The notes: generated by a model from the letters alone, not told the origin. Shown: positions 410 through 13,240, counted from the stretch's first letter. The stretch is 13,240 nucleotides of DNA from Candidatus Hydrogenedentota bacterium (GCA_963745075.1 CAVUWV010000029.1:1-13240); one strand, 5' to 3'. Translations and numbers: made by a program.

Positions 410-447
410 TTAATTCGTAGTCTGTCCCTGAATTTCCCTGAATTTCC
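410..447 (+). repeat. RAYT-associated terminal motif (type A) with 10-bp tandem duplication
   Basis: TTAATTCGTAGTCTGTCCCTGAATTTCCCTGAATTTCC. The first 27 nt are identical to 10050-10076. CCCTGAATTT occurs twice (426-435, 436-445). Confidence 0.9.
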
Positions 448-508
448 GCATAACAAGAAAAAACATTCCACTCCAATCACTTGTCGGGGATTACATACTC
501 TCTGTCAA

Positions 509-1420
509 TTATGTGCAAGCAGCAGTGCTTCTTCGTATTTCGTGTGCTGTGAATTCAAAGAAATCTGCAAGCGCCAGTGACGGCGGAGCGCCGAAGGGAA
601 AAACATCATCTCGAGGGCTATCGCTTTTGATCGCAGCACACCATGACTCCAGAAGGTCACAATAGATCACTAGGGCTGTGCCAGGGATATCTGCCCTATC
701 GGTTACGACGTAGGCGGGCGGGGCCGCAGAGACCACCACCCAGAGACGAGCATCTATGTCGCCTATTTTTCTGTCAAACTCGAATAGGAATACAGCAAAT
801 CTTCCGCGCTCCCCACATCCAAAATATCTCCGAACTATCTGGGGACACCAAGCAAATTTCGACAAAAACGCCTCTCCTTGTTCAAGCAGCGTCTGAAAAT
901 CTTTTGGAACTTTGCCATATCCGAAGGTGTCAGAGATCGGCGACAGATTCTTATAGTCGAAAGAACACGTTTTGACTCTTCCGCTACCACTTCCCCATCG
1001 CCTATACCGAGTCTCTCTACAAATTTGTTGAATCCCTTCGAACGCGTCCCGGACTACCCCACGAGGAGAACGTCCGCTGCGCGGTGTCGCAACCGACCAA
1101 TAAAGGTCCCAAGCCTCAAGCACCCGGCCCGCCTTCAGCAGTGCATCGGCTTTCATTACGATACTACCAGTATCATTCGGGTCGCGGGCCAGGACTTCAT
1201 TCATGGAAGCTATGGCATCATTGTATCGACCTAGGTCCAGTTCGCACGTTGCCTTAAACCTCCACATCTGGAGTGAGTCAGGGTCCAACTGCAAGTATTC
1301 GTTCATGGATCTTACTAAGTCATCGTCAAACGGCCGCGTGAAGTAACCACACTTGCATCGTAGACGCAAGCGCAGCCGTTTCCTACGTAAAACTATATAC
1401 TCCAAGAACCTCCTAAACAT
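509..1420 (-). CDS. TPR-repeat protein with C-terminal DUF4826-like domain; candidate immunity protein
   Basis: 303-aa ORF. TPR-like helices (LGRYNDAIASMNEVLARDPND; KADALLKAGRVLEA). C-terminal LWVVVSAAPPAYV...ALVIYCDLLESW recalls DUF4826-like proteins (from memory, unverified). Visibly AT-richer than the core genes. Start uncertain. Confidence 0.6.
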   Translation of the reverse strand: MFRRFLEYIVLRRKRLRLRLRCKCGYFTRPFDDDLVRSMNEYLQLDPDSLQMWRFKATCELDLGRYNDAIASMNEVLARDPNDTGSIVMKADALLKAGRVLEAWDLYWSVATPRSGRSPRGVVRDAFEGIQQICRETRYRRWGSGSGRVKTCSFDYKNLSPISDTFGYGKVPKDFQTLLEQGEAFLSKFAWCPQIVRRYFGCGERGRFAVFLFEFDRKIGDIDARLWVVVSAAPPAYVVTDRADIPGTALVIYCDLLESWCAAIKSDSPRDDVFPFGAPPSLALADFFEFTAHEIRRSTAACT

Positions 1421-1530
1421 GACACGACCGATAGAACCACTGGGATTCCAAGTTTATCTGTACAAGTTTCTAAGCGGAATCTGGCATTTTCCCAAATCTT
1501 GTTTAGATTTTCTAATGGGATCTAGAAAAG

Positions 1531-1748
1531 TCAATGATGCGAAATGTTCCGAATTATCCTAATCCCGGCAACGAGAAGATTAAACCCTACGCAGTCCAAC
1601 ATACATTTTGCATAGCGTGGTTTACTTTTGCACAGACCGTGGCAACTTCTCGGTGGTGGTCGATTCGAATCCGGATCTGGATTACCAGGTTGACCAACAG
1701 TCTCGACTACAATCGGCTTCACGGGACAAGTGACGGGCTCGTCCCGCC
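1531..1748 (-). pseudogene. 5'-truncated Cys/Pro-rich ORF tip, possibly a polymorphic-toxin C-terminus
   Basis: The frame RRDEPVTCPVKPIVVETVGQPGNPDPDSNRPPPRSCHGLCKSKPRYAKCMLDCVGFNLLVAGIRIIRNISHH* starts directly after the motif half TGTCCCTTTATTTCC and lies upstream of 509-1420 on the same strand. No family recognised. Confidence 0.35.
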
Positions 1749-1778
1749 GGAAATAAAGGGACATCCATGATAGGTATA

Positions 1779-1784
1779 AGTCAA
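1779..1784 (-). promoter_or_regulatory. Outward-facing -35 box of the IS circle-junction promoter
   Basis: TTGACT near the right end. Joining the ends gives TTGACT-18 nt-TAGCAT with an extended -10 TG (-10 at 3349-3344). Confidence 0.7.
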
Positions 1785-2017
1785 GAGGCAAAGCGGGCGG
1801 TTTGCCATTCCGTCGGTTGGGCGTCTTTGGGGCGAAGAGGTAGCTGATTGTTGGGCGGAGACTTAGGCGGCCTGGGCGTAGTGCGGTGCCGAGAATGGGT
1901 AGCTTGCGTATAGCTCGTCGGAGGCAGCGCAGTGCGACCGGGCCGCCGTCGTTCGGGCAGTACTCCCCCTTCGCGGTCCGCGGGTTGGTTTCGCGCGCCG
2001 CGCCATCACGTCGTTTC

Positions 2018-2204
2018 CGGTTCTCCGTTTTGCTGACGAGATAGGTTCTCGCAACCAGACATCCATTTGCAGATACCACGTTGACGGCGTGGGTCCGATG
2101 TTTGCGTTTGGGAGAGCCGCCGCGCCCGAAACAGACTACGGGGGTATCGGGATTTGTGTCCCTTGCCCAGTCCCTAACGGCGGGATACGGCGGCAGGAGA
2201 ACCG
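2018..2204 (-). ncRNA. Predicted bridge/seek RNA of the IS1111-type element
   Basis: Closed by a 9-bp stem CGGTTCTCC/GGAGAACCG. In order it contains AAGGGACA (2164-2157), CGTAGTCTGT (2140-2131), GCAAACA (2105-2099) and ATGGATGT (2066-2059), matching target right, target left, donor right (6/7) and donor left. Internal stems GCCGCCG/CGGCGGC and CCCGA/TCGGG. Boundaries approximate. Confidence 0.75.
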
Positions 2205-2218
2205 TATGTGAAAACCTC

Positions 2219-3244
2219 CTACACCTCGGGCGCTATGAAGGGCTGCCCGGATTTGTCCACGGCCAACAGATAGGCCACCAGTTTGCGCGCCACGGCCAGG
2301 GTCGCGCGGTTCTTGTTGTATCCCCGAACGATGGCTTGCTCGCGTATGCGCGTCAAGTGGGCGTGTTTGGACGGCGCCAGCTTGGCCGCTTCGATGAGAA
2401 TGGACTGTAAGTGGGGGTTGCGTTCTTTGGACAAGGGCATGCGCCACTGTTTGTCGCCCGACTCGTGTTGGGCCGAGCACAACCCGCAGTAACTCTGCGC
2501 GCGCCGGATGTTGGAAAAGCGATGCGGGTCGTCGATCTCGAGGGCCCAGGTCAGCGCCGTAACCTGGCCCACGCCGCCCACCGACTGGAGCAGGGTCACC
2601 CGGTCGCACAAGGCGGCATGCCGGGTCAAGACATCGAGCAAGTGGCGCTGGGCGGCCGTGAACAATTCGAGATTGGTCCGAGTCATGCGTAACAAGTTGA
2701 CCACCGACGGTGGCACGTCTTCCAGGCTGTCCACCAGCTCGGAGAAGTACTTCTTTCCGTGCAGTTTGGATTTGGCGTACTCCACGCCCGTCTCCATCAG
2801 AATGCCCGACGCCTTGTTCTTCATGCGGGTGGCGTGTCCGACCAGGAAGTTGCGGTACCGCAGAATCCGCCGTAACTCGCGCACCTCGGCCGAGGCCATG
2901 TAGCACGAGGGAAACAGGTCGGCCCGCAGCAGGTTGGCCAGCATTTCGGCGTCGATGCGGTCGTTCTTGTTCTTCGACAGCGCCTTGAGCCGGCGCGGAT
3001 GTCCCACGTGAAGCTCGGCTGCGTACGGCAACAGGGCGTCGTAGACCCAACCGGTAAACAAGGTCGCCTCGATGCCCGCGACGAAGGGCCGCGTGCGAGA
3101 GGTCGCAAACGCCACCAGTTCCTCCTTGCGCGCACCGATCGTCCCCCGATCCGCCACGTTGCCCAACGGGTCCTTCTCGCAAAACGCAATGGTCCGCTTG
3201 TGGATGTCCAGGCCGATGAAGTGATACGCTTGAGTCGTGTTCAT
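2219..3244 (-). CDS. IS110-family DEDD recombinase/transposase (IS1111 type)
   Basis: 341 aa. RuvC-like DEDD residues in FIGLDIHK, GIEAT and KNDRIDA. C-terminal LLQSVGGVGQVTA...YCGLCSAQHESG with the conserved Ser, and AVARKL. RBS GAAGGAG upstream of the ATG. Confidence 0.96.
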   Translation of the reverse strand: MNTTQAYHFIGLDIHKRTIAFCEKDPLGNVADRGTIGARKEELVAFATSRTRPFVAGIEATLFTGWVYDALLPYAAELHVGHPRRLKALSKNKNDRIDAEMLANLLRADLFPSCYMASAEVRELRRILRYRNFLVGHATRMKNKASGILMETGVEYAKSKLHGKKYFSELVDSLEDVPPSVVNLLRMTRTNLELFTAAQRHLLDVLTRHAALCDRVTLLQSVGGVGQVTALTWALEIDDPHRFSNIRRAQSYCGLCSAQHESGDKQWRMPLSKERNPHLQSILIEAAKLAPSKHAHLTRIREQAIVRGYNKNRATLAVARKLVAYLLAVDKSGQPFIAPEV

Positions 3245-3349
3245 GGGAAGTCTCCTTCTGTGATGGGCGCTCCATACGCCCCTTGCACTTAGTGTAAGGC
3301 AGACTTCCCACTTTTCTTTCCTTAGTGACCTCGCAACCTATGCATGCTA

Positions 3350-3364
3350 ACAGACTACGAATTA
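3350..3364 (-). repeat. 5' half of a type A RAYT motif containing the RAYT stop codon; the 3' half is at 1749-1763
   Basis: TAATTCGTAGTCTGT on the minus strand, identical to 411-425 and 10051-10065, and cut at TGT by the IS. Confidence 0.85.
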
Positions 3365-3921
3365 CCCACTTCTCCGCCGTCTTTCTCCGTCCGTTTGCGT
3401 TTCCGGCCTCGTTTGGCAGGACGCAGGAGGCGACCGAGCAGGTTCTCCAGCTGGACCACAAACTGGCTCCCGCCGCAGGGGCGGCCAGTGCTGGTCTGGC
3501 GGCGAATGCGATCGACGGCATCGGGGTCCTCCTCCACACGAAGCCATTGCGCCCAGTCCTCGATAACGCCGGGCGGGGGAAACTCCTTCGATAGTAGCGG
3601 GTCCGGCTGGGTTTGGCAAGGGATTCCGGCTTCGGAAGGGACAGACCCCGTGTTTCGCTCCGAAGACTGCGCGAAAGACGGGGTCAGTCCCACGCAATGG
3701 GCGCGCGCGCTGGACCAGGGGTGGTCTTCGGCCCGGTCGACCATTCCCGCGCGGACGGGGTTGCGTTCGACGTACCGGACCGCCGCCCACAAATGGGCTT
3801 CGTCCAGCACGCACGAATAAAATCGCCCCTGCCACACGTGGCCGCTCAGTTGGGTGCGCGTGTTGAAACGCATGGCGTAAACGGTGTGCGCGTCGCGCAA
3901 CGCGTGGGCCCGAGATTCCTC
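3355..3921 (-). pseudogene. 5'-truncated RAYT lacking the HUH motif, with an in-frame palindromic insertion
   Basis: 3757-3921 is a near-identical repeat of 1-165 (EES.AHALRDAHTVYAMRFN...RYVERNP). It continues WSSARAH...TGRPCG...LLRPAKRGRK...GNS*. No NHIHL or start upstream; only a decayed RYP*RHATGG trace to about 3950. Confidence 0.88.
3638..3691. repeat. 54-bp REPIN-like hairpin, copy 1, inside the RAYT pseudogene
   Basis: GGGACAGACCCCGT...ACGGGGTCAGTCCC, 51/54 identical to 11891-11944. Confidence 0.9.
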
Positions 3922-3964
3922 ACCGCCGGTGGCGTGACGTCACGGGTAACGGTGCAGATGCGGA

Positions 3965-4162
3965 TTACGCGATGGGGGCATCGGCACGATACAACACGGT
4001 ATAGATCAAGTCCCCCGAGCCAGCGCGGCCGCCGGGTTCATGGCTAAGCACGGTTTTTACGGTAACCACGTCGACCTTATACTGCTGAATCCACGTATTG
4101 ACATTTGCGTCGAGGTCCGCCGTCTTGTCTTCGTACCCCTTAAACGTGCGCACAAAAACCAT
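3965..4162 (-). CDS. Small hypothetical protein (65 aa)
   Basis: ATG with a good RBS (AAGGAGAAGG) and a natural-looking alpha/beta sequence (VRTFKG...LDANVNTWI...IYTVLY). Confidence 0.75.
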   Translation of the reverse strand: MVFVRTFKGYEDKTADLDANVNTWIQQYKVDVVTVKTVLSHEPGGRAGSGDLIYTVLYRADAPIA

Positions 4163-4418
4163 TTGCCTTCTCCTTACCCATCGAAATCACCGGAAGTAAG
4201 CCGGGTCAATTGTGTCTAAGTTGCAAGGTGCGAATTCAGTGTACCAACCGTTGGTCGGGCAGCCAAGTTGTTGACCGGAACGAGAAAGTCGCGTAGGCTG
4301 GATACAGGGTGCGGACGTGCAAGGACTTCGAGAGAGTATGAGATGCCCCACCCAACAATAGCGAGTTGCGCTACCCTTTCATCCGGTGGATTCCGATCAC
4401 CCGAAGTCAGGAGGTTTC

Positions 4419-5480
4419 GTGAAAGCAGCATACATTACACAGAACGGGGACCTCGAAAGCATACAAGTCGGCGAGATTCCGGACCCCGAGCTTGCCGACG
4501 ACGAGGTCATGATTGAGGTCAAAGCGGCAGCGTTGAACCACCTGGACATCTGGGTTCGGAAGGGCCGGCCAGGCCTCGAACTCTGTCTCCCCCACGTGCT
4601 CGGCTCCGATGCCATGGGCACCGTCGTCGCGGTGGGCAAGGCGGTGGATTCGGTCGCGGTGGGCCAGGACGTGATAGTCGACCCGGGTCTGTCCTGCGGC
4701 GTGTGCGAGTACTGCCTGCGCGGCGAGCAAAGCGAATGCCTCTATTACGGGATTATCGGGATGAGCCGTCCCGGAACGTTCGCGGAACGAGTCAGCGTGC
4801 CCGCCACGAACGTTCACCCGGTGCCGAGTCACTTGAGTCCGGCGGAAGCGGCGGCGCTCCCGCTGGTGTACCTGACGGCCTGGCGCATGCTCATGTCGCG
4901 GGGACAGTTACATCCGGGGGACACGGTGCTCATTCACGGGATCGGCGGCGGCGTTGCGCTGGCGAGCCTTCAATTGGCCCGGCTTGCGGGCGCGGAAGTG
5001 ATCGTGACGTCTTCTTCCGAAGAAAAGCTGAAACGAGCGAGCAAACTGGGCGCTTCGGTAACGATGAACTATGCGAACAATTCCGATATCGCGGTCTCCA
5101 TCAAGGACTTGACGGGGGGCCGGGGCGTGGATCTCGTGATCGACGCGGTGGGCGCCGCAACGTGGCCCATCAATTTCGGTGCGGTCCGGCGCGGCGGGAA
5201 GATCGTTCACTGCGGCGTAACGTCCGGGGCTTCGGCACAAGTTGACATCTCGGCGTTGTATTGGAACCAGGTCACCGTCTTGGGGTCCACGATGGGTTCG
5301 CGGGAAGATTTCCGGCGCATGGTCCGTGCGGTAAATGCGGCGACGCTTCGCCCGGTGGTGGATTCGGTGGTATCGCTGCATGATATCCGCAGCGCGACGG
5401 AGCGAATGGAACGCGGCGAACAGTTCGGCAAGATTGTGTTGGACATGAAAGGGAAGTTTGCTGAATCTGTGACCGCGTGA
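4419..5480 (+). CDS. Zinc-binding medium-chain dehydrogenase/reductase (alcohol dehydrogenase / quinone reductase-like)
   Basis: GTG start after AGGAGG. VKAAALNHLD, PHVLGSD, structural Zn motif CGVCEYC...C, nucleotide-binding HGIGGGVA, and terminal FGKIVL. Confidence 0.93.
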   Translation: MKAAYITQNGDLESIQVGEIPDPELADDEVMIEVKAAALNHLDIWVRKGRPGLELCLPHVLGSDAMGTVVAVGKAVDSVAVGQDVIVDPGLSCGVCEYCLRGEQSECLYYGIIGMSRPGTFAERVSVPATNVHPVPSHLSPAEAAALPLVYLTAWRMLMSRGQLHPGDTVLIHGIGGGVALASLQLARLAGAEVIVTSSSEEKLKRASKLGASVTMNYANNSDIAVSIKDLTGGRGVDLVIDAVGAATWPINFGAVRRGGKIVHCGVTSGASAQVDISALYWNQVTVLGSTMGSREDFRRMVRAVNAATLRPVVDSVVSLHDIRSATERMERGEQFGKIVLDMKGKFAESVTA

Positions 5481-5492
5481 CGTCCGGGCGTT

Positions 5493-6638
5493 TTACGAGA
5501 ACAAACGTTTTCGCGCCACCAAGCCGGCCATCAGCAAACCGAAGAACGCGCCCAGTACCCACACGCGACGATCTGCAAAAAACCCCCGCTTTGGTTTTGC
5601 ACCCGATTCCGCGGCACGTGCGGGCGGGTCGTCGTTGCCGGCGCCGACCGGGTCGACGTTGGCAAGGCTTGCCATCTGACGGACCTCGCCCGTATTCCCC
5701 TCGGCGAGGAGGGGGGCCACGCCGGGATGGGAATCCTCAGGCGCCGAAGCCGGAGTGCCGGTCTCCGTGGATCCCGAAGCGGCGGGCGCTGCACCGGTTG
5801 CACCGTCTTCCGTCGCCACCGGTGAAGGGATTCCCGCACGCTTCTGTGCGAATTCACGGGCCATTCGATCCAACTGAGACAACCGCGATGCGGCGTCATC
5901 CGATCGGGACGCGTTCAAGGCCCGGGATCCTGTCGGGCGTCCCGTATCCAACACGCCCGTTGGAACGGTCGACTTCCCGTTCGATGCCGGGGACTGGGGA
6001 TTCGACACACTGGGAACCGTTGTATCTGTGGGCTCCGAAGCCGGCGCCGTTGTATCGTCCGTTGGAGGTGCGGGCGGTTCGTTTTCGTCGGTCGGGGTCG
6101 GATCCGAACCCGGTTCCGTATTGGGCGGATTGTTTGGATCCTGGGGATTCGAGTCATCGGCAGGCGACGCACTCAATTGCAGGGTGGCGGAACTGCCTCG
6201 CGATGCGATGGTCTGGCCGGCCAGCGAGGCGAGTGTTGTTCCGTCGATTGCAATATTCGTTTCCGCTGCGGCGGCGCCGACACGGCGGAGCGAGATGTCC
6301 GCGATCTTGCCGTTTTCCATGGTGGACTGGTTCAGGCCGAACATCATGACGACATACTCGCCGGGAGAAGTCATGTTGTATTGCACGCCCTTGCCGGCGG
6401 CAATCGCTGCGTCGCCGGTGCGGACGCCGTTGGGCACCAGAACGGAGGGATCGTAATGAAAGGTGAAATCCAGGGCGGCGACTCCGGAATCGACGCTCCC
6501 CTCCAAATAGACGGGTACGGTCACTGCATTTCCCTGGACCGCCGGTGTCCCCACACTCAAGACCCCTTCACCCAGGGCTGAAGGCAGGGCAAATACCAGC
6601 AGTACGCCCAGTGCAGTTACTTCACGGTTTACTCTCAT
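5493..6638 (-). CDS. Membrane-anchored surface protein with a cohesin-like domain
   Basis: Signal peptide, then a cohesin-like beta sandwich (VTVPVYL...VAALDFTFHYDPSVL...GKIADISL), a long Pro/Thr/Ser/Asp linker, and a C-terminal TM helix with a basic tail (RKRLFS). Confidence 0.8.
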   Translation of the reverse strand: MRVNREVTALGVLLVFALPSALGEGVLSVGTPAVQGNAVTVPVYLEGSVDSGVAALDFTFHYDPSVLVPNGVRTGDAAIAAGKGVQYNMTSPGEYVVMMFGLNQSTMENGKIADISLRRVGAAAAETNIAIDGTTLASLAGQTIASRGSSATLQLSASPADDSNPQDPNNPPNTEPGSDPTPTDENEPPAPPTDDTTAPASEPTDTTVPSVSNPQSPASNGKSTVPTGVLDTGRPTGSRALNASRSDDAASRLSQLDRMAREFAQKRAGIPSPVATEDGATGAAPAASGSTETGTPASAPEDSHPGVAPLLAEGNTGEVRQMASLANVDPVGAGNDDPPARAAESGAKPKRGFFADRRVWVLGAFFGLLMAGLVARKRLFS

Positions 6639-6779
6639 TGCCAGATCCGCTCTATGCTGCCCACGACGTTGACGATACTCGAATAACGACTTGCGCCATG
6701 TTTTCGTTGACGACCCCGGTCCGCGACCTACGTAACCTTAACATGCGCCGCATCAAAACGTTACACACGAGACGGGCGA

Positions 6780-7418
6780 TCATTGGGGATCGTCTTTGCT
6801 ACCAGCGGGTTGCGAAAGTGTAGGTTCCGACGGCTCTCCGGGATCGGTGGTTTTGGTCGTCGCGCCGCTGTCGTCTTGTGAGTCGATCCACTGGACCGAA
6901 CTGGTTTCCCCCAGTTGGTCCTCGTTCGAGGTTTCTTGGTAGGTACTGGGGAAAATCGACGCCATTGCGGCGAACGCCTGGGTGTGGCCAAGCAGGGAAT
7001 ACCGCATCACGACGATCAGGAGGTAAAACCAGGCCGAAGTCTTGGCCAAGGCAACGACAATAACGATCACGCGCAGATTCGGGACCGGGATGTCCGAGAG
7101 ATGGGTGACTTGCGATAAGGGAAAGTTCAGGAACGCGACCAGACCGAGAATGATGAATTGCAGGGCGCGCCCCTTCGCTTCCATACCGGTCAGACCCACG
7201 TCCAGACAACGGTGATAGGCAAAAAGCCCGAGAAAGGCTGAAAACGCCAAGGTGATCATGTGGGGACTGTTTACCATCGCGGTCAGAATACTAACGTCGC
7301 CCCAGTCCCGAAGCGTGAAGTAGAGCCATTCGGGGGAGAGGCCCGCAAAGAAGTAGACGGCCCACATGGCAGCCGCCGCTAGCGACCATGGGTCCCATTG
7401 TTTTTCGGATTGTGACAA
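6780..7418 (-). CDS. Hypothetical integral membrane protein (about 4 TM helices, acidic tail)
   Basis: TTG start with GGAG RBS, four hydrophobic segments and a disordered acidic C-terminus. Confidence 0.75.
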   Translation of the reverse strand: MSQSEKQWDPWSLAAAAMWAVYFFAGLSPEWLYFTLRDWGDVSILTAMVNSPHMITLAFSAFLGLFAYHRCLDVGLTGMEAKGRALQFIILGLVAFLNFPLSQVTHLSDIPVPNLRVIVIVVALAKTSAWFYLLIVVMRYSLLGHTQAFAAMASIFPSTYQETSNEDQLGETSSVQWIDSQDDSGATTKTTDPGEPSEPTLSQPAGSKDDPQ

Positions 7419-7585
7419 CTTGATACTCCAGGACCTGTGCGACGGTTGGGTTTTCGATTCTATCCCTGCTTGAAGAGCGGTTCTGACGGAAGCATGACCC
7501 GCTGTGAGCCTGTCCCATATTGGAGCAAAGGCTCGGACGCCATGTCAACCGCTCCGCACCGGCAACGAGGGATCTGGCGTGCACG

Positions 7586-8767
7586 TTAGAGGCCCGAACG
7601 CAATACCGCATCGCAGATGGGACCGCGAGACTTGTGTCCTTTCAGGACCAAATGTCCGTAATTGTGACTGCCGCGCAACATTCGCACGATCCAGTTCAGG
7701 GCGTTGTTGGACTCGTTGAGGTAGGGATTGTCGACCTGCCGCGTGTCGCCGAGACATATACACTTCACGTTCTCGCCCATCCGGGTGAGCAGGGCGCGAA
7801 TCTCGTTGCGCGACAGATTCTGGGTCTCGTCGATGATCACGACGGCGTCCTCGATATTCATTCCGCGGATAAAGGCAAGGGGCAGAATCTCGAACTTCGC
7901 GGGGTCGTATTTTGAATGTTCGGCCTTGGGATCGGCGAAGATCTTGTTCGCGGGGCGCAAACCGTGAAGTTTCGCCGTCAGGCCGTGCAGGTAGCTGATA
8001 TAGGGTTCCAGCTTTTCCGCCACGTCGCCGGGCAGAAACCCCATCTTGGCGCCAATCTCGATCATGGGTTTGAGCACGTAGATCTTGTTGAACCGCTTCG
8101 TTTCGAGCGTGAGATAGAGCGCCGCCGCAAGGGCGAGAAATGTCTTCCCAAAGCCGGCTTCGCTTTGCAGCGTGACCAGATCGATTTGTTCGTTGAGCAG
8201 CAGCTCAAACGCGAGGTTCTGATAGACGGTCCGCGGCTTAACCTTCCAGACTTCGTGTTCGTACTCGATGACCCGGGGGCCATCCGAACTATGAAACAAG
8301 GGTTTGCCTTCGTGCCACTTGAAACTGTTCGGGTAGGGTTCTTCGCCGTCCGTGACAAACCCGGTGTATTGCTGGGAATCCGATTCGAAGGGGTGGGAAC
8401 TCTTAAATTCCTGGCTGCGAACGCCGCTGAATTCCGCGATCAATTGGAGAATGCGATCGTTGGTGACCAGGATGGGATCGTTCAATCCGCCGCTCTTGAT
8501 TTCTTTGAGGATCTGGAGGTCGACGTTGGGAACCAGCGGCTCACTGCCGTTCTGGCCGATGATGGTGATTGTCTCGAAGTTCTGCCGGATGGAGTCCACG
8601 GCTTTCGCGACCAAATGCTGCACCCGAGGCTCTTTCTTCAGCTTGTCCAGTTCCAGAAGGACGTGGAATGGTATGCTTACCGAGTTTTCCTCGCCATTGC
8701 GCAATATGCGAATGCAGTTTGGATCCTCGAGCAAAGCGTTGGTGTCGAGAACGTAGCTCTTTTTCAT
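7586..8767 (-). CDS. PhoH-family ATPase with N-terminal PIN domain (PhoH2/YlaK-like)
   Basis: Start MKKSYVLDTN after GGAGG. PIN motifs VLDTN, VLLELD and VTND. Walker A-like SEAGFGKT, MGFLPGD, FIRGMNI, IIDETQN, LGDTRQVD. Confidence 0.93.
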   Translation of the reverse strand: MKKSYVLDTNALLEDPNCIRILRNGEENSVSIPFHVLLELDKLKKEPRVQHLVAKAVDSIRQNFETITIIGQNGSEPLVPNVDLQILKEIKSGGLNDPILVTNDRILQLIAEFSGVRSQEFKSSHPFESDSQQYTGFVTDGEEPYPNSFKWHEGKPLFHSSDGPRVIEYEHEVWKVKPRTVYQNLAFELLLNEQIDLVTLQSEAGFGKTFLALAAALYLTLETKRFNKIYVLKPMIEIGAKMGFLPGDVAEKLEPYISYLHGLTAKLHGLRPANKIFADPKAEHSKYDPAKFEILPLAFIRGMNIEDAVVIIDETQNLSRNEIRALLTRMGENVKCICLGDTRQVDNPYLNESNNALNWIVRMLRGSHNYGHLVLKGHKSRGPICDAVLRSGL

Positions 8768-8897
8768 GGATTCGCCTCCAAAACGCAAGCGCCGGAAGAC
8801 ACGAGGACAGGTTTGCGAAACGTCCCGTAATGACGCGGGCTTCGCCAGGATGATGGGACCGAGGGAAATGGAAACCAAGTGCGGCGTCGCCGCAACC

Positions 8898-8957
8898 AAA
8901 TTCGAAATCCGAAGCACGAAATCCGAAACAAATCCCAATGTTCCAAATCGGAAATGA
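8898..8957. repeat. Degenerate heptamer tandem repeat
   Basis: AAATTCG AAATCCG AAGCACG AAATCCG AAAC AAATCCC AATGTTCC AAATCGG AAATGAC, upstream of the PhoH gene. Confidence 0.7.
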
Positions 8958-9677
8958 CTAAAACGCGGATCGGCCCACCTGGTGGCTTGGAGGTTGGCCG
9001 ACTGCCAGCGGATTCGGACATCCGTGCGGCACGGTTCAACCGGCTCACTTTGCCGAACGGCGAATTCAGCCGCCCGGCGCCCCATCCAACTCCGTATGGT
9101 TCGATGTTGACTATCCTTGGCCCGGTCGCTACCGCAGGGTCCTCGGTACGGAACGTCCGCCCGAAGGCGTAGCGCCTGTTCCAATTCGCGCAGCGAAGGG
9201 CCAACGATTCAGCGCACCCCTTCGCCCCTTCTACAGACAGCATAGCATACAATATGTAGGATTGCCACACTTTGTACTACCATATATTGATTTCCTCGAA
9301 AAGCAAGAAAGACTGGTCTGCGCAGTGACACCCCCCTCTGCTTTTGACGAAACAAGGGGAGAGATTCCGAGTTGGAGGAATTGACGGTCCCCGGCAAGGG
9401 GGGTGTCCGATTGCAGGTTGTGGTCCCCGGGTTCGGGAGGATGACGTGGCGATTGCGGATTTCGGATTTTTTGGGTTGGCATGGATGGAGTTGTCCTTAT
9501 CATTATAGGCCGGAGTGTTGCAGTGGAATCCGGCTGGAGGCTGGACTTTCGGCCTTCAAGAAGATGAACCGCGAACCCGCGAAGTTCGCGAAGTAAGAAC
9601 CAAGAACCGTACGCGTAGAGAACTTTTTGGCTCGTGCCGTCCCAGCACCCTTGGACCAAAGCGCCGCGACATGATAG

Positions 9678-9710
9678 CCCGGGGCAAACTACGCCGTGGC
9701 GTAGCCCGGG
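9678..9710. repeat. REP-like palindrome
   Basis: CCCGGG...CTACGCC-GT-GGCGTAG-CCCGGG hairpin in non-coding DNA. Confidence 0.5.
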
Positions 9711-9838
9711 TAAAAGTGCACCCGAACCAAAGCGCTGAAGGTGCGCAACAATCTAATAACGGCCCCTCCCAAACTCCAAAATCGCAAAACCACTACCTGT
9801 CCTATTGCGCATTTTAGCCCGGTGCGCTACTCTTATAG

Positions 9839-10060
9839 GGGTTCGCCCAGGCCAGCACGACCAAGGACTGGTCCGAGCGGCTTCACGTGGAGGATGGCTA
9901 CGATGCCGTTGACCGCATTCGCTATCAGACCAACATCACGCCACCGGTGTGGCTTGTGGGATAACTGGGACATTCCCTTGACCGCCTCCTCCGCCCCGCC
10001 AGGCGCGGCCGCAAGCCCAAGCGAACCGGTGGAAACGGCGAGGAAGAGTTTAATTCGTAG
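9839..10060 (+). pseudogene. Decayed RAYT C-terminal remnant
   Basis: Frame 2 reads KDWSERLHVEDGYDAVDRIRYQTN...*LGHSLDRLLRPARRGRKPKRTGGNGEEEFNS*. This aligns with EDWAQWLRVEEDPDAVDRIRRQTS...LLGRLLRPAKRGRKRKRTEKDGGEVGNS* of 3355-3900. Internal TAA at 9962. Confidence 0.85.
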
Positions 10061-10091
10061 TCTGTCCCTGAATTTCTCTCTGAATTTCTCT
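10050..10091 (+). repeat. RAYT-associated terminal motif (type A) with 12-bp tandem duplication
   Basis: TTAATTCGTAGTCTGTCCCTGAATTTCTCTCTGAATTTCTCT. CTGAATTTCTCT occurs twice (10068-10079, 10080-10091). Contains the RAYT stop codon. Confidence 0.9.
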
Positions 10092-10492
10092 GCTTCATCC
10101 GAAATGGAGACCAATCGTGGTCGTATTCGCCCGCTGGAGTGACCGAAGAAGGAAATCAGAAACATGTTCAATGTCAGGAAATAAACTGTCCGGAAGACTT
10201 TGATGAGGACGGCTTCAGTAGACAACTTAATGATACACTGAATGACTCACAGGCATGCAAAGGGGAGTGGAAGAAAGGCAAACGCGGGGATGGCGGCTCA
10301 TACCATCTTACGGAGCACAATTGCTGTCATTTTGTGGACGAAATGCTACATTCGCAGGGCTGTAACGGCGTGAAGTACTATTGGCCATATAAGAACCTGC
10401 CTCATGAGTTCGTTCCGAACGACGATCTCCCAATGCCGAACGGCAGTGGAACTGGGCCGGAGACTCCTTGCGACAAAGCGAAGGGAGATTGA
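10091..10492 (+). pseudogene. 5'-truncated permuted papain-fold (PPPDE/DeSI-like) domain, likely a polymorphic-toxin C-terminus
   Basis: The frame starts at the motif junction with CFIRNGDQSWSYSPAGV and contains YHLTEHNCCHFVDEML (Y-x-L-x3-N-C-x-H-F catalytic Cys motif). Cys-rich and followed closely by a small membrane gene. Confidence 0.65.
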
Positions 10493-10500
10493 GGCGGGGT

Positions 10501-10965
10501 ATGGTGAGTACGACCTTTGTCGCCGTGATAGCTGGCGTAGCTTTCGGTCTAATTCTCGTTCTAGGTAGTCTTCTTTTAGCTTGGCGATCAAAGGCTCGCA
10601 GACTCACTGGTGTTATCGCGCTACTGGTCGCTCTTTCCATCGTTGGAGTTGTGGGCAACGACCTTCGAAATGCTTGGCTGCGAGTATCGTCAGGCGAACT
10701 CTTACTTTCAGAAATCCCAGTAGGAACTCAAAGGACCCATTTGGAGGAGTACCTAAAGGAGAACATGACACGTTTGCACATCCGAGAATGGAAGAAGCCG
10801 AGCGCTGAGGACTGGCAAGATGGCAGGAATCCTATGCCCACGTACTTTGTACTGTTCGATGTGGGGTTTTCGTATTGGGCAACGTTTGTAGAGAACAAAG
10901 GCTCTATTTGCATAATGATGGACAAACAATCACAAGTTGTCAGCGGAATTGGATGGGTCTTGTGA
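10501..10965 (+). CDS. Small membrane protein (2 TM helices plus soluble domain); candidate immunity protein
   Basis: ATG 8 nt after the upstream stop (alternative TTG at 10489 overlaps the stop). Two hydrophobic helices. AT-richer than the core. Confidence 0.65.
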   Translation: MVSTTFVAVIAGVAFGLILVLGSLLLAWRSKARRLTGVIALLVALSIVGVVGNDLRNAWLRVSSGELLLSEIPVGTQRTHLEEYLKENMTRLHIREWKKPSAEDWQDGRNPMPTYFVLFDVGFSYWATFVENKGSICIMMDKQSQVVSGIGWVL

Positions 10966-11052
10966 TGAGTTTCGATGCGTTGAGGGTACGACTCTGACGC
11001 GACTCCTGATTCGCTGGGCGGAGGCCGGGCCGGATCAAAATAATTAAATAAT

Positions 11053-11462
11053 TGGGGACAGTAACCATTTATTGCGGCTGGACCTGGGCGGGTGGTTCGA
11101 GGCGACGCCCGCCTCGAACTGGAAGGGCACGCTCACAGCCCTCGCCGATTCCGGCCCCAAGGTGGACCTCCTTCGCCTGCACACGCGTACGGGCCGTCCC
11201 CTCGGCGGCGATTCGCTTCTCAGCAAGGTGGAAACCTACCTCGGCCGCCGTGTCCGCGCCATCCCGTGCGGGCGCCCCCACGGCAGCAAAGACACGTTCC
11301 CGCGCAAGCGACGGTAAACGAAACCGTGCGCGAAACCGATTGCGCATTTCGGGCGCCAGTAGTAGTATTGCAAAAGGATCACGGATGCACGGGCCCATCG
11401 GAATTCACGCACCCGGCATCGAGCGTCAAGGAGGGGACTGCAATAAATGGTTACTGTCCCCA
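11053..11462 (+). mobile_element. Non-autonomous RAYT derivative with 23-bp perfect inverted repeats (type B motif)
   Basis: TGGGGACAGTAACCATTTATTGC (11053-11075) and GCAATAAATGGTTACTGTCCCCA (11440-11462). Tandem duplications at the outer ends: AAATAATT x2 (11038-11053) and TCCCCATTTAT x2 (11457-11478). Confidence 0.8.
11072..11317 (+). pseudogene. C-terminal fragment of a second RAYT subfamily
   Basis: LDLGGWFEA...VDLLRLHTRTGRPLGGDSLLSKVETYLGRRVRAIPCGRP matches the RAYT C-terminal pattern (compare RQTSTGRPCGGSQFVVQLENLLGRLLRPAKRGR). It begins at the IR. Confidence 0.8.
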
Positions 11463-11481
11463 TTTATTCCCCATTTATTCC

Positions 11482-11886
11482 GTTGTCTCTCGGTATCACG
11501 CCTGATGGCGTGCGACCTGGCGACGCAGGCGACTTCGCTCCGCGGTAGTCGCCAGGGAAAGTATCCATCCGCTCCAGTTGGGCGATGGCTTCGTCGATAC
11601 GGCCCTGCTCTTTCAGACAGGTAAAGGCCAACCAGTTGGCCTCAGGTTCCAGGGGGTCTTTCTTCAGCAGCCGTTCAAAGAGGGGTAATGCCTCGCGGTA
11701 ACGTCCTGTCTGGACGTAGACCTTGCCCAGATTTCGCAGCGACGTGACGTAGTCGCGGTCAGTCTCCAGGGCTTGCGAGTAATACCGCTCCGCCGCCGCC
11801 AACTGGCCATATTCCGCGCAAACGCTGCCGAGGTTGTTCAACGTCTCCTTCCCGCCTTCTCCGATGCGGAGGGCCGGGTTGTTGGG
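11482..11886 (-). pseudogene. Internal fragment of a TPR-repeat gene bracketed by CTGTCCC motifs
   Basis: TLNNLGSVCAEYGQLAAAERYYSQALETD / LRNLGKVYVQTGRYREALPLFERLLKKDP / CLKEQGRIDEAIAQLE. The frame is open back into the hairpin at 11891, and its stop (11464) lies inside the type B motif. Confidence 0.75.
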
Positions 11887-11890
11887 GAGA

Positions 11891-11944
11891 GGGACAGACC
11901 CCGTGTTTTGCTCCGAAGACTCCGCAAAAGACGGGGTCAGTCCC
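11891..11944. repeat. 54-bp REPIN-like hairpin, copy 2
   Basis: GGGACAGACCCCGTGTTTTGCTCCGAAGACTCCGCAAAAGACGGGGTCAGTCCC, 3 differences from 3638-3691. Confidence 0.9.
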
Positions 11945-12011
11945 GATTACGGGGCCGCTGCTGTGGACGGCGTGGTATAGTACGCGGATCAAGCACCCCA
12001 TCGAGGAGATT

Positions 12012-12818
12012 ATGCATCCGGTTCTGTTTGAATTCGCGGGGATCACCATCGGCTCGTATTCGGTGCTATTGGCGATTGCGATTGTCGTGAGCGTTTCGCT
12101 GGCGGTGCGCGAGGCGGAACGCCGCCATCTGCCCATCACGTATCCGATGGCAGTGTTGGTACTTTTGGGTGCGTTATTCGGGGCGAGGGTCTTCTGGATT
12201 CTTCAGTTCAGCGAGCCGAGTCAGCTCTGGCGCGCGGTAATCCTGTGGTCGCCGGGCCTTGTCTTCTACGGCGGTTTGGTGGGCGGAAACCTGGTGCTAT
12301 TGGTCGCGCTTCGATACCGGGGAGCGCCACTCTGGCCGTCACTGGATGTCGTGGCGCCGCACGCGGCGCTGGGGGAGGGAATCGCGCGGATCGGGTGTTT
12401 CCTTGCGGGTTGCTGCTGGGGCCGGGTTTGCACGGTGCCGTGGGGGGTGCGGTTTCCGGCGGGAAGTTTCGCCTACGTGGACCAACTGGATGCGGGTCTA
12501 CTCGATAACACCGGAGCCACCTCGCTGCCGGTCCATCCGACTCAACTGTATATGGCGTTTGGCCTTGCCGCGGTTTACGCGATGCTGCTGTTTCTCCTCT
12601 ACCGAAAACATCGGGCAGGGACGGTGGTGACGGCGTATATCGCGCTGTACGGTCTGCTGCGCTTCACGGTCGAGGCATTCCGTGGAGACAGCGCGCGACC
12701 ATTTCTGGGCATGACCGTCTCGCAGGTAATCAGCGGGGTATGCTTTTTTGCAGGGCTTGTCGTTTTGCTCCGTCTCCTGATTCGGCACGGGACCATCGTG
12801 ACTTCCAAAACGCCATAG
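12012..12818 (+). CDS. lgt: Prolipoprotein diacylglyceryl transferase
   Basis: MHPVLF start with GAGGAG RBS. GARVFW, GLVFYGG, RIGCFLAGCCWG, HPTQLY and RFTVEAFRGD motifs, with multiple TM helices. Confidence 0.95.
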   Translation: MHPVLFEFAGITIGSYSVLLAIAIVVSVSLAVREAERRHLPITYPMAVLVLLGALFGARVFWILQFSEPSQLWRAVILWSPGLVFYGGLVGGNLVLLVALRYRGAPLWPSLDVVAPHAALGEGIARIGCFLAGCCWGRVCTVPWGVRFPAGSFAYVDQLDAGLLDNTGATSLPVHPTQLYMAFGLAAVYAMLLFLLYRKHRAGTVVTAYIALYGLLRFTVEAFRGDSARPFLGMTVSQVISGVCFFAGLVVLLRLLIRHGTIVTSKTP

Positions 12819-12948
12819 ATCTACGCGGTCGGCGATCGCGTGACTACGGTTTGGACGATCGATCGCGTTCTTGCATGGCCGTGCTGGGCCGCGTATTCTG
12901 CTGGCGGTCAACCTTCCGATACCTGCAAGAATAGGACTTGGAGCACCG

Positions 12949-13240
12949 ATGACGACACTGGTTTCGTGGAATGTGAATGGGATTCGCGCGGCGGGCCGCA
13001 ATGGTTTTCTGGACTGGCTGGACCGGGAACAGCCGGACGTGCTGTGCGTGCAGGAAATCAAGGCGAATGCGGAGGATGTACCGCCGGAATTGCGTGACCC
13101 GAAGGGGTATGGAAGTGTATGGCAATCGGCGAAGAAGAAGGGCTACAGCGGGGTCGCCACGTACTTTCGGACGGACCGGGAACGCTTTCGGTTAAGCCGA
13201 TGGGCATTGCGGAGTTCGACGACGAGGGCCGCGTGCAATT
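12949..13240 (+). CDS. xth: Exodeoxyribonuclease III / AP endonuclease, partial, with an apparent frameshift near 13183
   Basis: MTTLVSWNVNGIRAA...QPDVLCVQEIKA...KKGYSGVATY. The expected continuation LSVKPMGIAEFDDEGRVQ is in a different frame. Confidence 0.9.
   Translation, partial: MTTLVSWNVNGIRAAGRNGFLDWLDREQPDVLCVQEIKANAEDVPPELRDPKGYGSVWQSAKKKGYSGVATYFRTDRERFRLSRWALRSSTTRAACN

Follow-up and report, generated by a model that had tools for sequence, protein, structure and literature searches.

Clustered TIRtron-type elements that probably trap accessory, largely Rhs-related DNA in a Candidatus Hydrogenedentota genome

What brings gene fragments to lie between inward-facing copies of a short motif, beside transposase-like genes, is the question raised by a 13,240-bp stretch of DNA from a Candidatus Hydrogenedentota bacterium (GCA_963745075.1, CAVUWV010000029.1:1-13240; hereafter the window). 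The window is an entire contig, C29, of a 6.8-Mb bin of 36 contigs (the others are likewise cited by C numbers, and related genomes by G numbers), and the public loci nearest to it belong to metagenome-assembled genomes of Candidatus Hydrogenedentota. A first-pass annotation had described three cargo segments between CTGTCCC motifs, next to genes for REP (repetitive extragenic palindromic)-associated tyrosine transposases (RAYTs), and had read them as an integron-like cassette system. The analysis reported here favours, at a probability of roughly 0.6, a cluster of known TIRtron-type elements (a RAYT-like gene between terminal inverted repeats, TIRs) that traps accessory, largely Rhs-related DNA as a by-product, and not a dedicated capture system.

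Exact CTGTCCC sites were located at 422 (+), 3638 (−), 4901 (−), 7510 (+), 10062 (+), 11055 (−), 11454 (+) and 11891 (−), and this number, against 1.70 expected, was reached in 0 of 200 shuffles. Six of the eight lie within TIR units or REPIN-like (REP doublet forming hairpin) units; the sites at 4901, within an alcohol dehydrogenase (ADH) gene, and 7510 have no TIR context. Genome-wide, the sequence context sorted the sites into three kinds, namely an A-type repeat (TTAATTCGTAGTCTGTCCCTGAATTTCC), a B-type repeat (GCAATAAATGGTTACTGTCCCCATTTATT(C/G)C) and a 59-nt REPIN-like hairpin (GGGACAGACCCCGT...ACGGGGTCAGTCCC), which has a GGGACAGAC core in common with the A-type TIR. A stem filter around CTGTCC was rejected as non-discriminating (136 sites, against 115 with shuffled flanks), and sequence context was used instead. 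With a context pattern, 35 of 44 genomic matches were judged true ends in TIR context. These form nine outward-facing pairs 64–884 bp apart, which are the units, and six inward-facing pairs less than 10 kb apart, to which the window contributes two more that the pattern did not catch (eight inward pairs in all). The ends of complete units face outward in every case, and the inward pairs are therefore gaps between neighbouring elements. Since CTGTCCC is an element end read outward, DNA between two adjacent elements is automatically bracketed by inward motifs.

The units fall into two subfamilies. RAYT-A, of 258 aa, is found in full on C24, C9 and C20, each copy between two inverted A-type TIRs and with its stop codon inside the right TIR. 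The window carries the N-terminal 124 aa of a further copy, cut by the contig end (1–372, minus strand; PF01797, E 4.5e-12), the product of which is 97–99% identical to the full copies at the protein level. Its left end is an A-type TIR at 408–447, with the outer arm CTGAATTTCC in tandem duplicate, and the same 28-bp TIR flanks the three full copies in inverted orientation. A second RAYT-A remnant, without approximately the first 69 codons, occupies 3355–3921 (minus; tblastn, 94–100% to the C-terminal part of RAYT-A), and a divergent RAYT-A-like C-terminal remnant with about 200 bp of upstream DNA lies at 9629–10049 (plus), followed by its right-end A-type TIR (10050–10091, plus; duplicated outer arm at 10080–10091). 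This remnant unit is also present at C27:212193–212544 (84%) and C20:1–236 (98.7%). RAYT-B is a 232-aa gene at C20:153772–154467, in a full unit (C20:153615–154540) between inverted B-type TIRs. The window holds an internally deleted RAYT-B unit, termed B-mini (11040–11481, plus, including duplicated arms at both ends; 424 bp from TIR to TIR, 11047–11470), made up of the left TIR (11047–11075), the last 82 codons (11063–11311), a 3′ region and the right TIR (11440–11470). Four copies of B-mini, 97–98.6% identical, were found (the window, C20:1144–1561, C20:152318–152739 and C27:217584–218007).

The 3′ part of B-mini (11338–11470), just inside the right TIR, also contains a promoter-like TTGCGC-N17-TAGTAT and an AAGGAGG box. 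An ATG within the B-type right-TIR hairpin reads outward (MVTVPIY...) and heads long open reading frames (ORFs) on C10 (535 aa, an Rhs fragment) and C20 (181 aa). No role is claimed for this start codon: in two other cases the frame closes after about 25–33 codons, and the pattern could be explained by chance in-frame fusions.

When folded as single-stranded DNA, the B repeat (right TIR of B-mini) formed a 9-bp stem (−5.2 kcal/mol, z −4.0), and the A repeat folded no better than shuffles (−0.8 kcal/mol, z 0.1). The REPIN-like hairpins at 11886–11944 (unstranded, recognized by folding and copy count) and 3634–3691 (unstranded) gave −20.5 kcal/mol (z −5.3) and −21.9 kcal/mol (z −5.8), respectively. 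About 10 copies of the GGGACAGAC-core hairpin are present in this genome, forming a dispersed palindromic family related to the flanking repeats, and the congeners G001 and G002 have at least 40 each among the matches listed. The hairpin at 3634–3691 lies in frame within the RAYT-A ORF and encodes the peptide GLTPSFAQSSERNTGSVP. This hairpin recurs in the C24 and C9 copies, in the latter with a stop codon inside it; in the C20 copy its place is taken by another insert, which contains two GGGACTGTCCC palindromes. At several ends the outer TIR arm is present in tandem duplicate. Pfam, tblastn and folding thus bear out the earlier statement that RAYT genes, remnants of them or a hairpin lie outside the motifs.

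Both full-length proteins matched the Y1/HUH core family PF01797 (E 7.9e-12 for RAYT-A, 5.6e-14 for RAYT-B), and this match, together with the outward TIR ends of the full units, upholds the assignment of the genes to RAYT-type Y1/HUH enzymes and of the motif to those enzymes. The REP-associated tyrosine transposase model NF047646 scored 74.9 and 71.9 bits, narrowly under its cut-off of 80. According to Di Nocera et al. 2013 (PMC3733652), units of this kind are named TIRtrons and their enzymes TIRYTs, and the TIR consensus is GGGGWSAS. This is the reverse complement of the window motif; the B-type TIR carries GGGGACAG and the A-type AGGGACAG, matching GGGGWSAS at 7/8. Quentin et al. 2018 (PMC6006769) equate the TIRYTs with TnpA-Y1 subclass 2.1 and with Bertels' Group 1, and give for them the motifs NHVH/NH[YF]H, W[EQ] and Y[IV]ELNP/Y[IV]HLNP, an SS tail and a length of ~238 aa; in the same paper, REP-like sequences were not found for subclass 2.1, and REPs inside the gene are reported for subclass 2.4 only. 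RAYT-B (NHVH, WQ, YVELNP, WSSA; 232 aa) fits subclass 2.1, and RAYT-A (NHIH, WQ, YVERNP, WSSA; 258 aa) does so with NHIH as only a near fit. A Pfam search, the only search made for a C-terminal helix-turn-helix (HTH; Bac_DnaA_C, HTH_23, HTH_28), gave no match in either protein at E up to 1. In a set of 35 related loci spread over many phyla, the gene is flanked in 27 by inverted repeats that combine a GGGAC/GGGGAC core with covarying AT-rich arms; one locus has a GGGTAC variant, three have only unrelated repeats and four have none; several also show the tandem-duplicated outer TIR arm. By these sequence features the elements, in their two subfamilies A and B, are assigned to the published TIRtron/TIRYT class. 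Group 1 comprises the most insertion sequence (IS)-like RAYTs, 6.3% of them with near-identical duplicates and some plasmid-borne, according to Bertels et al. 2017 (PMC5581495).

The first array, on the left of the window, runs from RAYT-A (1–372) through its left TIR and cargo 0 to a right TIR split by an IS110-family element, the truncated RAYT-A and a small gene, small65. The outer half of this right-end A-type TIR (1749–1763, minus) and the inner half, which contains the RAYT stop codon (3350–3364, minus), rejoin into a complete TIR, and 2 bp are duplicated where the element inserted. Between them, inside the TIR core, is the IS110-family insertion sequence (1764–3349, minus; transposase 2219–3244; PF01548/PF02371), with a transposase scoring 188 bits against NF033542 (cut-off 140), which NCBIfam names "RNA-guided transposase". 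Further copies were found at C10:323839–325446 (99.9%) and C23:101905–103064 (90%). All three sit in TIR cores, two A-type and one B-type, at ...CTG^TCCC with a 2-bp duplication, and the IS110 element appears, from these positions, to use TIRYT terminal repeats as a specific target. The second array comprises the divergent RAYT-A-like remnant with its right TIR, cargo 1, B-mini, cargo 2 and the hairpin at 11886–11944, followed by the lgt promoter region.

Of the three segments said to lie between inward CTGTCCC pairs, 10092–11037 and 11482–11886 do so; cargo 0 (448–1748) has the exact motif on the left only, its right bracket being the half A-type TIR at 1749–1763 that IS110 split off. The observation that the cargo is AT-richer held (GC 0.42–0.54, against 0.58–0.60 for most contigs). 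A second copy of cargo 0 or cargo 1 was not found in the genome, and no cassette-borne recombination site was found in any cargo segment.

Cargo 1 (10092–11039) begins in a frame open from 10061, right after the RAYT stop codon at 10058–10060. Its first part, cargo 1a (10092–10492, plus), was identified by phmmer as a fragment of an Rhs C-terminal toxin domain, with seven weak matches (E 2.6e-6 to 9e-4) among 1.8 billion representatives. In four of six homologues fetched, TIGR03696 (Rhs_assc_core; E 3e-13 to 5e-20) directly precedes the matched domain. The alignment starts at the 'HCY' position, about the first 20 toxin residues and the entire Rhs body are missing, and the break coincides with the last base of the duplicated TIR arm. 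A PPPDE match was weak (E 0.0099, below cut-off). No Rhs-like sequence was detected elsewhere in the window by tblastn with Rhs ORFs. On the strength of these alignments, cargo 1a is taken to be a dead, truncated Rhs C-terminal toxin tip. Immediately 3′ of it, cargo 1b (10468–10965, plus) is a small ORF with hydrophobic N-terminal stretches, no family match in Pfam and NCBIfam scans, and one weak relative among 53 other genomes of the family; by its position it is a candidate immunity gene.

Cargo 0 (448–1748, minus) is an AT-richer foreign segment with a 303-aa TPR ORF (509–1420, TPR Pfam), which has its own ATG, behind a 73-residue open frame (1531–1748) that begins at the junction. No homologue of this junction frame was found among longer proteins, which is weak evidence in itself. 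Similarity of the 303-aa ORF to ~165-aa ORFs of three congeners, one of which again lies between TIRs, is confined to its C-terminal half. In G005 (locus L108, contig C190 of that genome) a homologue of this C-terminal half adjoins a comM-like gene. Cargo 2 (11482–11876, minus) comprises the 5′-most 394 bp of a TPR gene (TPR Pfam), the 3′ end of which is cut by the B-type TIR; paralogues on C10 and C20 (91%) extend about 270 bp past the break, and the 5′ end beside the hairpin is kept. The first-pass annotation had the first ORF of every segment truncated at its 5′ end at the motif. This is true of cargo 1 only (one of three segments): cargo 2 is cut at the 3′ end, so the claim fails there, and in cargo 0 the frame at the junction lacks a detectable homologue and the TPR ORF has its own ATG. 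The proposed layout of toxin tip plus small downstream gene holds for cargo 1, with its Rhs tip and small ORF; the putative tip of cargo 0 has no detectable homologue.

Synteny argues that the cargo came from elsewhere. G003, G001 and G004 keep the gene order NamZ–small65–ADH–cohesin–TM–phoH–lgt–xth, in which the phoH–lgt spacer measures 577–666 bp, against 3242 bp here, and has no TIR motif; the cargo is therefore not resident DNA. The comparison of this interval had been suggested beforehand, with conserved, syntenic and full-length cargo in relatives as the outcome that would count against the cassette reading, and the cargo proved neither syntenic nor resident in any of the three genomes. 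In the window the region upstream of phoH is native to about position 9300, and some 330 bp of no assigned origin then precede the remnant of the second array. A short repeat at 9476–9558, at the left edge of the inserted block, has four other genomic copies (83–88%). The two pile-ups of elements occupy both spacers flanking a conserved block of five genes.

Rhs-like DNA was found at three places only (C10:394501–403163, C20:151541–151723 and C27:212463–217607), each adjoining TIR elements or the unit formed by the TPR gene and its hairpin; the three loci are partly paralogous and hence not independent cases. This search used tblastn with Rhs ORFs, a strict YD-repeat pattern having been dropped after it returned only eight hits.

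Taken together, these observations are best accommodated if TIRtron elements, their deleted derivatives and the related REPIN hairpin piled up in the two spacers, and if the trapped AT-richer DNA stems largely from Rhs toxin/immunity islands that the elements had colonised. Genes are cut at the TIR edge where elements insert: on C27 the last Rhs ORF is cut by B-mini, and the RAYT-A copy on C9 lies within a copy of small65. Deletions anchored at element ends, and recombination between copies 80–98% similar, would have removed the other gene halves, and the same events may have copied mosaic blocks to new places. Between element ends this would leave dead toxin tips and gene stubs, along with small downstream genes that are still intact.

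The strongest competitor, possible but distinctly less probable, is that the Y1 enzyme itself moves flanking DNA, either by cleavage at a TIR that ends at the next compatible hairpin or by end-anchored deletion. DNA from the right TIR to the next hairpin (a TIR of the other subfamily or a REPIN) would then travel along, and arrays would build up; IS91 and ISCR elements, with their read-through (one-ended) transposition, offer an analogue. The junctions anchored at the right TIR of B-mini speak for it. The left flanks of the four copies are unrelated, and the right flanks all derive from one TPR-hairpin unit, in a graded series: ORF181, an Rhs stub, the full TPR gene and the hairpin (C20:150728–152339); 394 bp of TPR gene and the hairpin (the window); 60 bp of TPR gene and the hairpin (C20:1563–1682); and half a hairpin (C27). 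A B-type right TIR and the TPR gene, in the same orientation, are about 890 bp apart in G004, and the long form may therefore be ancestral. The toxin break exactly at the end of a duplicated TIR arm, the remnant-plus-upstream unit common to C27, C29 and C20, and a REPIN as the right end of the phoH–lgt block are also consistent with enzyme-driven movement. On the other hand, circle junctions and pairs of empty and filled sites were not found, several junctions lie inside RAYT genes and not at TIRs (on C27, the fusion of a RAYT remnant with an Rhs fragment; the join of remnant and spacer at 3921), most family members elsewhere have no passengers, and recombination between copies plus ordinary deletion could yield the same pictures.

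Some of the same observations, and others, weigh against a mere by-product of clustering. The B-mini series, the TIR-arm duplications and the duplication/inversion at C20:237–288, where the remnant's right TIR is replaced by two tandem left-TIR units, look site-specific, unlike random deletion, and these end-junction features suggest, as far as sequence can tell, site-specific events. A simple insertion with contiguous flanks in an empty site was not found (FGGY locus; RAYT-B copies of G003 and G005), and ordinary transposition itself is thus deduced from copy number. Copies differ by 3–20%, so that recent activity is not demonstrated. Finally, the contig order C9, C29, C20 comes from synteny with one relative and not from the assembly.

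An extended form of the enzyme-driven proposal, in which end-anchored strand transfers by TIRYTs carry the DNA between a terminal repeat and the next compatible hairpin and the arrays accumulate disabled toxin tips with intact immunity genes, is rather more doubtful still. If true, such transfer would be an HUH-made counterpart of orphan toxin–immunity islands and a first hint of Group 1 RAYT effects on genomes. What RAYT-like enzymes do in the cell, and how mobile they are, is a matter of debate, and the TIR-flanked group has received the least study. Here and in at least one congener, TIRYT elements are IS-like, with multiple copies, deleted derivatives, a hairpin family and gene insertion, and they are densely clustered in toxin/immunity islands. 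The base-precise series at one element end provides a good natural case for asking whether adjacent DNA can be carried along or deleted by a Y1 enzyme.

Much less credible is a selected, integron-like system in which the RAYT would collect pieces of genes between its motifs and build up a store of immunity genes, as the first-pass annotation had inferred. The foreign, AT-richer cargo, the single dead toxin tip followed by an ORF that is intact, and the small uncharacterised genes between TIRs here and in a congener agree with it. However, no per-cassette site exists: the brackets are the inverted, outward ends of adjacent units, and remnants of the transposase lie between these brackets. Cargo 0 and cargo 1 each occur once in the genome, the immunity function is putative, and only the TPR-hairpin unit recurs in the genome, as a paralogous gene family. 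The other inward pairs have mixed contents: on C24 a complete gene for an FGE-sulfatase domain, on C31 a stretch of 6.5 kb that includes an FGE-sulfatase and an FG-GAP protein of 957 aa, on C20 a DUF7684 gene together with an Rhs stub and, in a separate pair, a 37-bp spacer, and on C36 1.1 kb. In three of the eight inward pairs the genes are apparently whole and not truncated (FGE-sulfatase twice, DUF7684 once). Among 27 related loci with a definable TIR, 21 have no TIR copies farther than about 300 bp from the gene and six have more, with inward-facing pairs 0.6–1.3 kb apart in four (L023, L040, L043 and L059). The TIRs being mostly solitary beside their gene, the class as a whole is not an array builder. 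An array in G001 contains, in the same orientation, two copies of another deleted derivative, between which lie an Rhs fragment and a homologue of the cargo-0 gene.

Chimeric joins or mixed strains at repeats of the metagenome bin, an equally improbable source of these patterns, would account for the ends of C29, C9 and C20 at or near RAYT copies and for C20:1–2977 as a 97–98.7% variant of window 9822–13238 with a different interior, but the junctions fall at TIR edges to the exact base and are seen again in independent contigs and in the genome of another species, contamination of the bin is given as 0.8%, and the unique core 3921–9629 joins both arrays in one contig.

In that variant, C20:1–236 matches window 9822–10057 (98.7%) and C20:1622–2977 matches 11884–13238 (97.1%). 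Between the two blocks are a full RAYT-A, 37 bp, B-mini and a 60-bp TPR stub, and neither cargo 1 nor the 394-bp stub. Mismatches to the window are clumped, and the last ~40 bases before the end of C29 are identical; C20:1–2977 may be either a co-assembled strain variant or a paralogue.

Synteny with G003 orders the contigs as the reverse complement of C9, then C29 and C20. A small65 3′ end with its spacer lies at 3910–4075 (unstranded), and the 5′ break of the RAYT-A remnant at 3355–3921 meets the spacer downstream of small65 at a short similar stretch. A second copy of the small65 3′ end (84.5%) abuts the right-end TIR of the C9 RAYT-A, beside NamZ. On this order, the C9 RAYT-A would have inserted inside the small65 copy, and the left array would consist of three same-strand RAYT-A copies. 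In G003 (locus L120, G003:C2:150000–164000), the first ~590 bp of an FGGY kinase gene are duplicated (88%) about 3.9 kb upstream, beside a B-type TIR, which recalls the duplicated small65 end flanking the left array here.

The remaining gene content was called from an ORF scan and a Pfam scan of the window. The conserved block at 3965–8770 comprises small65, a zinc ADH, a cohesin-domain protein, a membrane protein and PIN-PhoH; lgt follows the right array at 12012–12818, and then comes the start of an exonuclease III-like gene. Rfam and tRNA scans over the window revealed no known RNAs. Upstream of phoH, a ~90-bp repeat rich in GAAATCCGAA units (8875–8965) recurs at about 40 further genomic places with 82–97% identity and has no Rfam match. 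One soil sequencing run contained 0.05 of sampled words.

Compared with known systems, the elements most resemble the TIRtrons and TIRYTs, with a Y1/HUH gene of ~230–260 aa, inverted repeats with a GGGGWSAS core, and the NHxH, WQ, Y...NP and WSSA motifs. They differ in having four to five copies of one subfamily together with remnants and deleted derivatives (the published mean is 1.9 copies), in a hairpin family that has the TIR core, one copy of it in frame within the gene (reported for subclass 2.4 alone), and in a tail with no detected HTH. Arrays with foreign DNA between units, or trapped toxin fragments, are not described in the portions of the TIRYT literature searched. The REPtron or RAYT-REPIN system (E. 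coli TnpA-REP) is similar in that its gene is bracketed by inverted palindromes that are also dispersed, with clusters and tandem repeat duplications; in contrast, the proteins here score below the NF047646 cut-off, no GT[AG]G foot occurs at the base of the strong hairpin, the A-type TIR has no significant fold and the gene is multi-copy.

IS200/IS605 elements likewise combine a Y1 enzyme with structured ends, copies in one orientation and non-autonomous, hairpin-ended deletion derivatives (PATE-type), whereas the ends here are true inverted repeats, tnpB is absent and no target tetranucleotide could be defined. Integrons also present rows of small, often uncharacterised genes between repeated sites, but here an integrase, attI and a common promoter are all absent, the sites are not owned by cassettes and first ORFs are broken. 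In E. coli Rhs elements, orphan toxin–immunity modules lie beside insertion sequences (H-rpt/ISAs1), and cargo 1 is like such a module in its startless toxin tip followed by a small gene, as is the locus in its IS elements in and around Rhs loci and its Rhs core fragments. In this tip, however, the core end (DPxGL) that most orphans keep is missing, and so are the first ~20 residues of the toxin; the tip is distant from any full rhs gene and has Y1/HUH units as neighbours. Lastly, ISPpu9 of Pseudomonas putida, an IS110-family element, reportedly inserts into REP sequences, and the IS110 element of the window is similar in its apparently sequence-specific insertion into a short repeat, the target here being the TIR of a TIRYT and not a GTAG-type REP.

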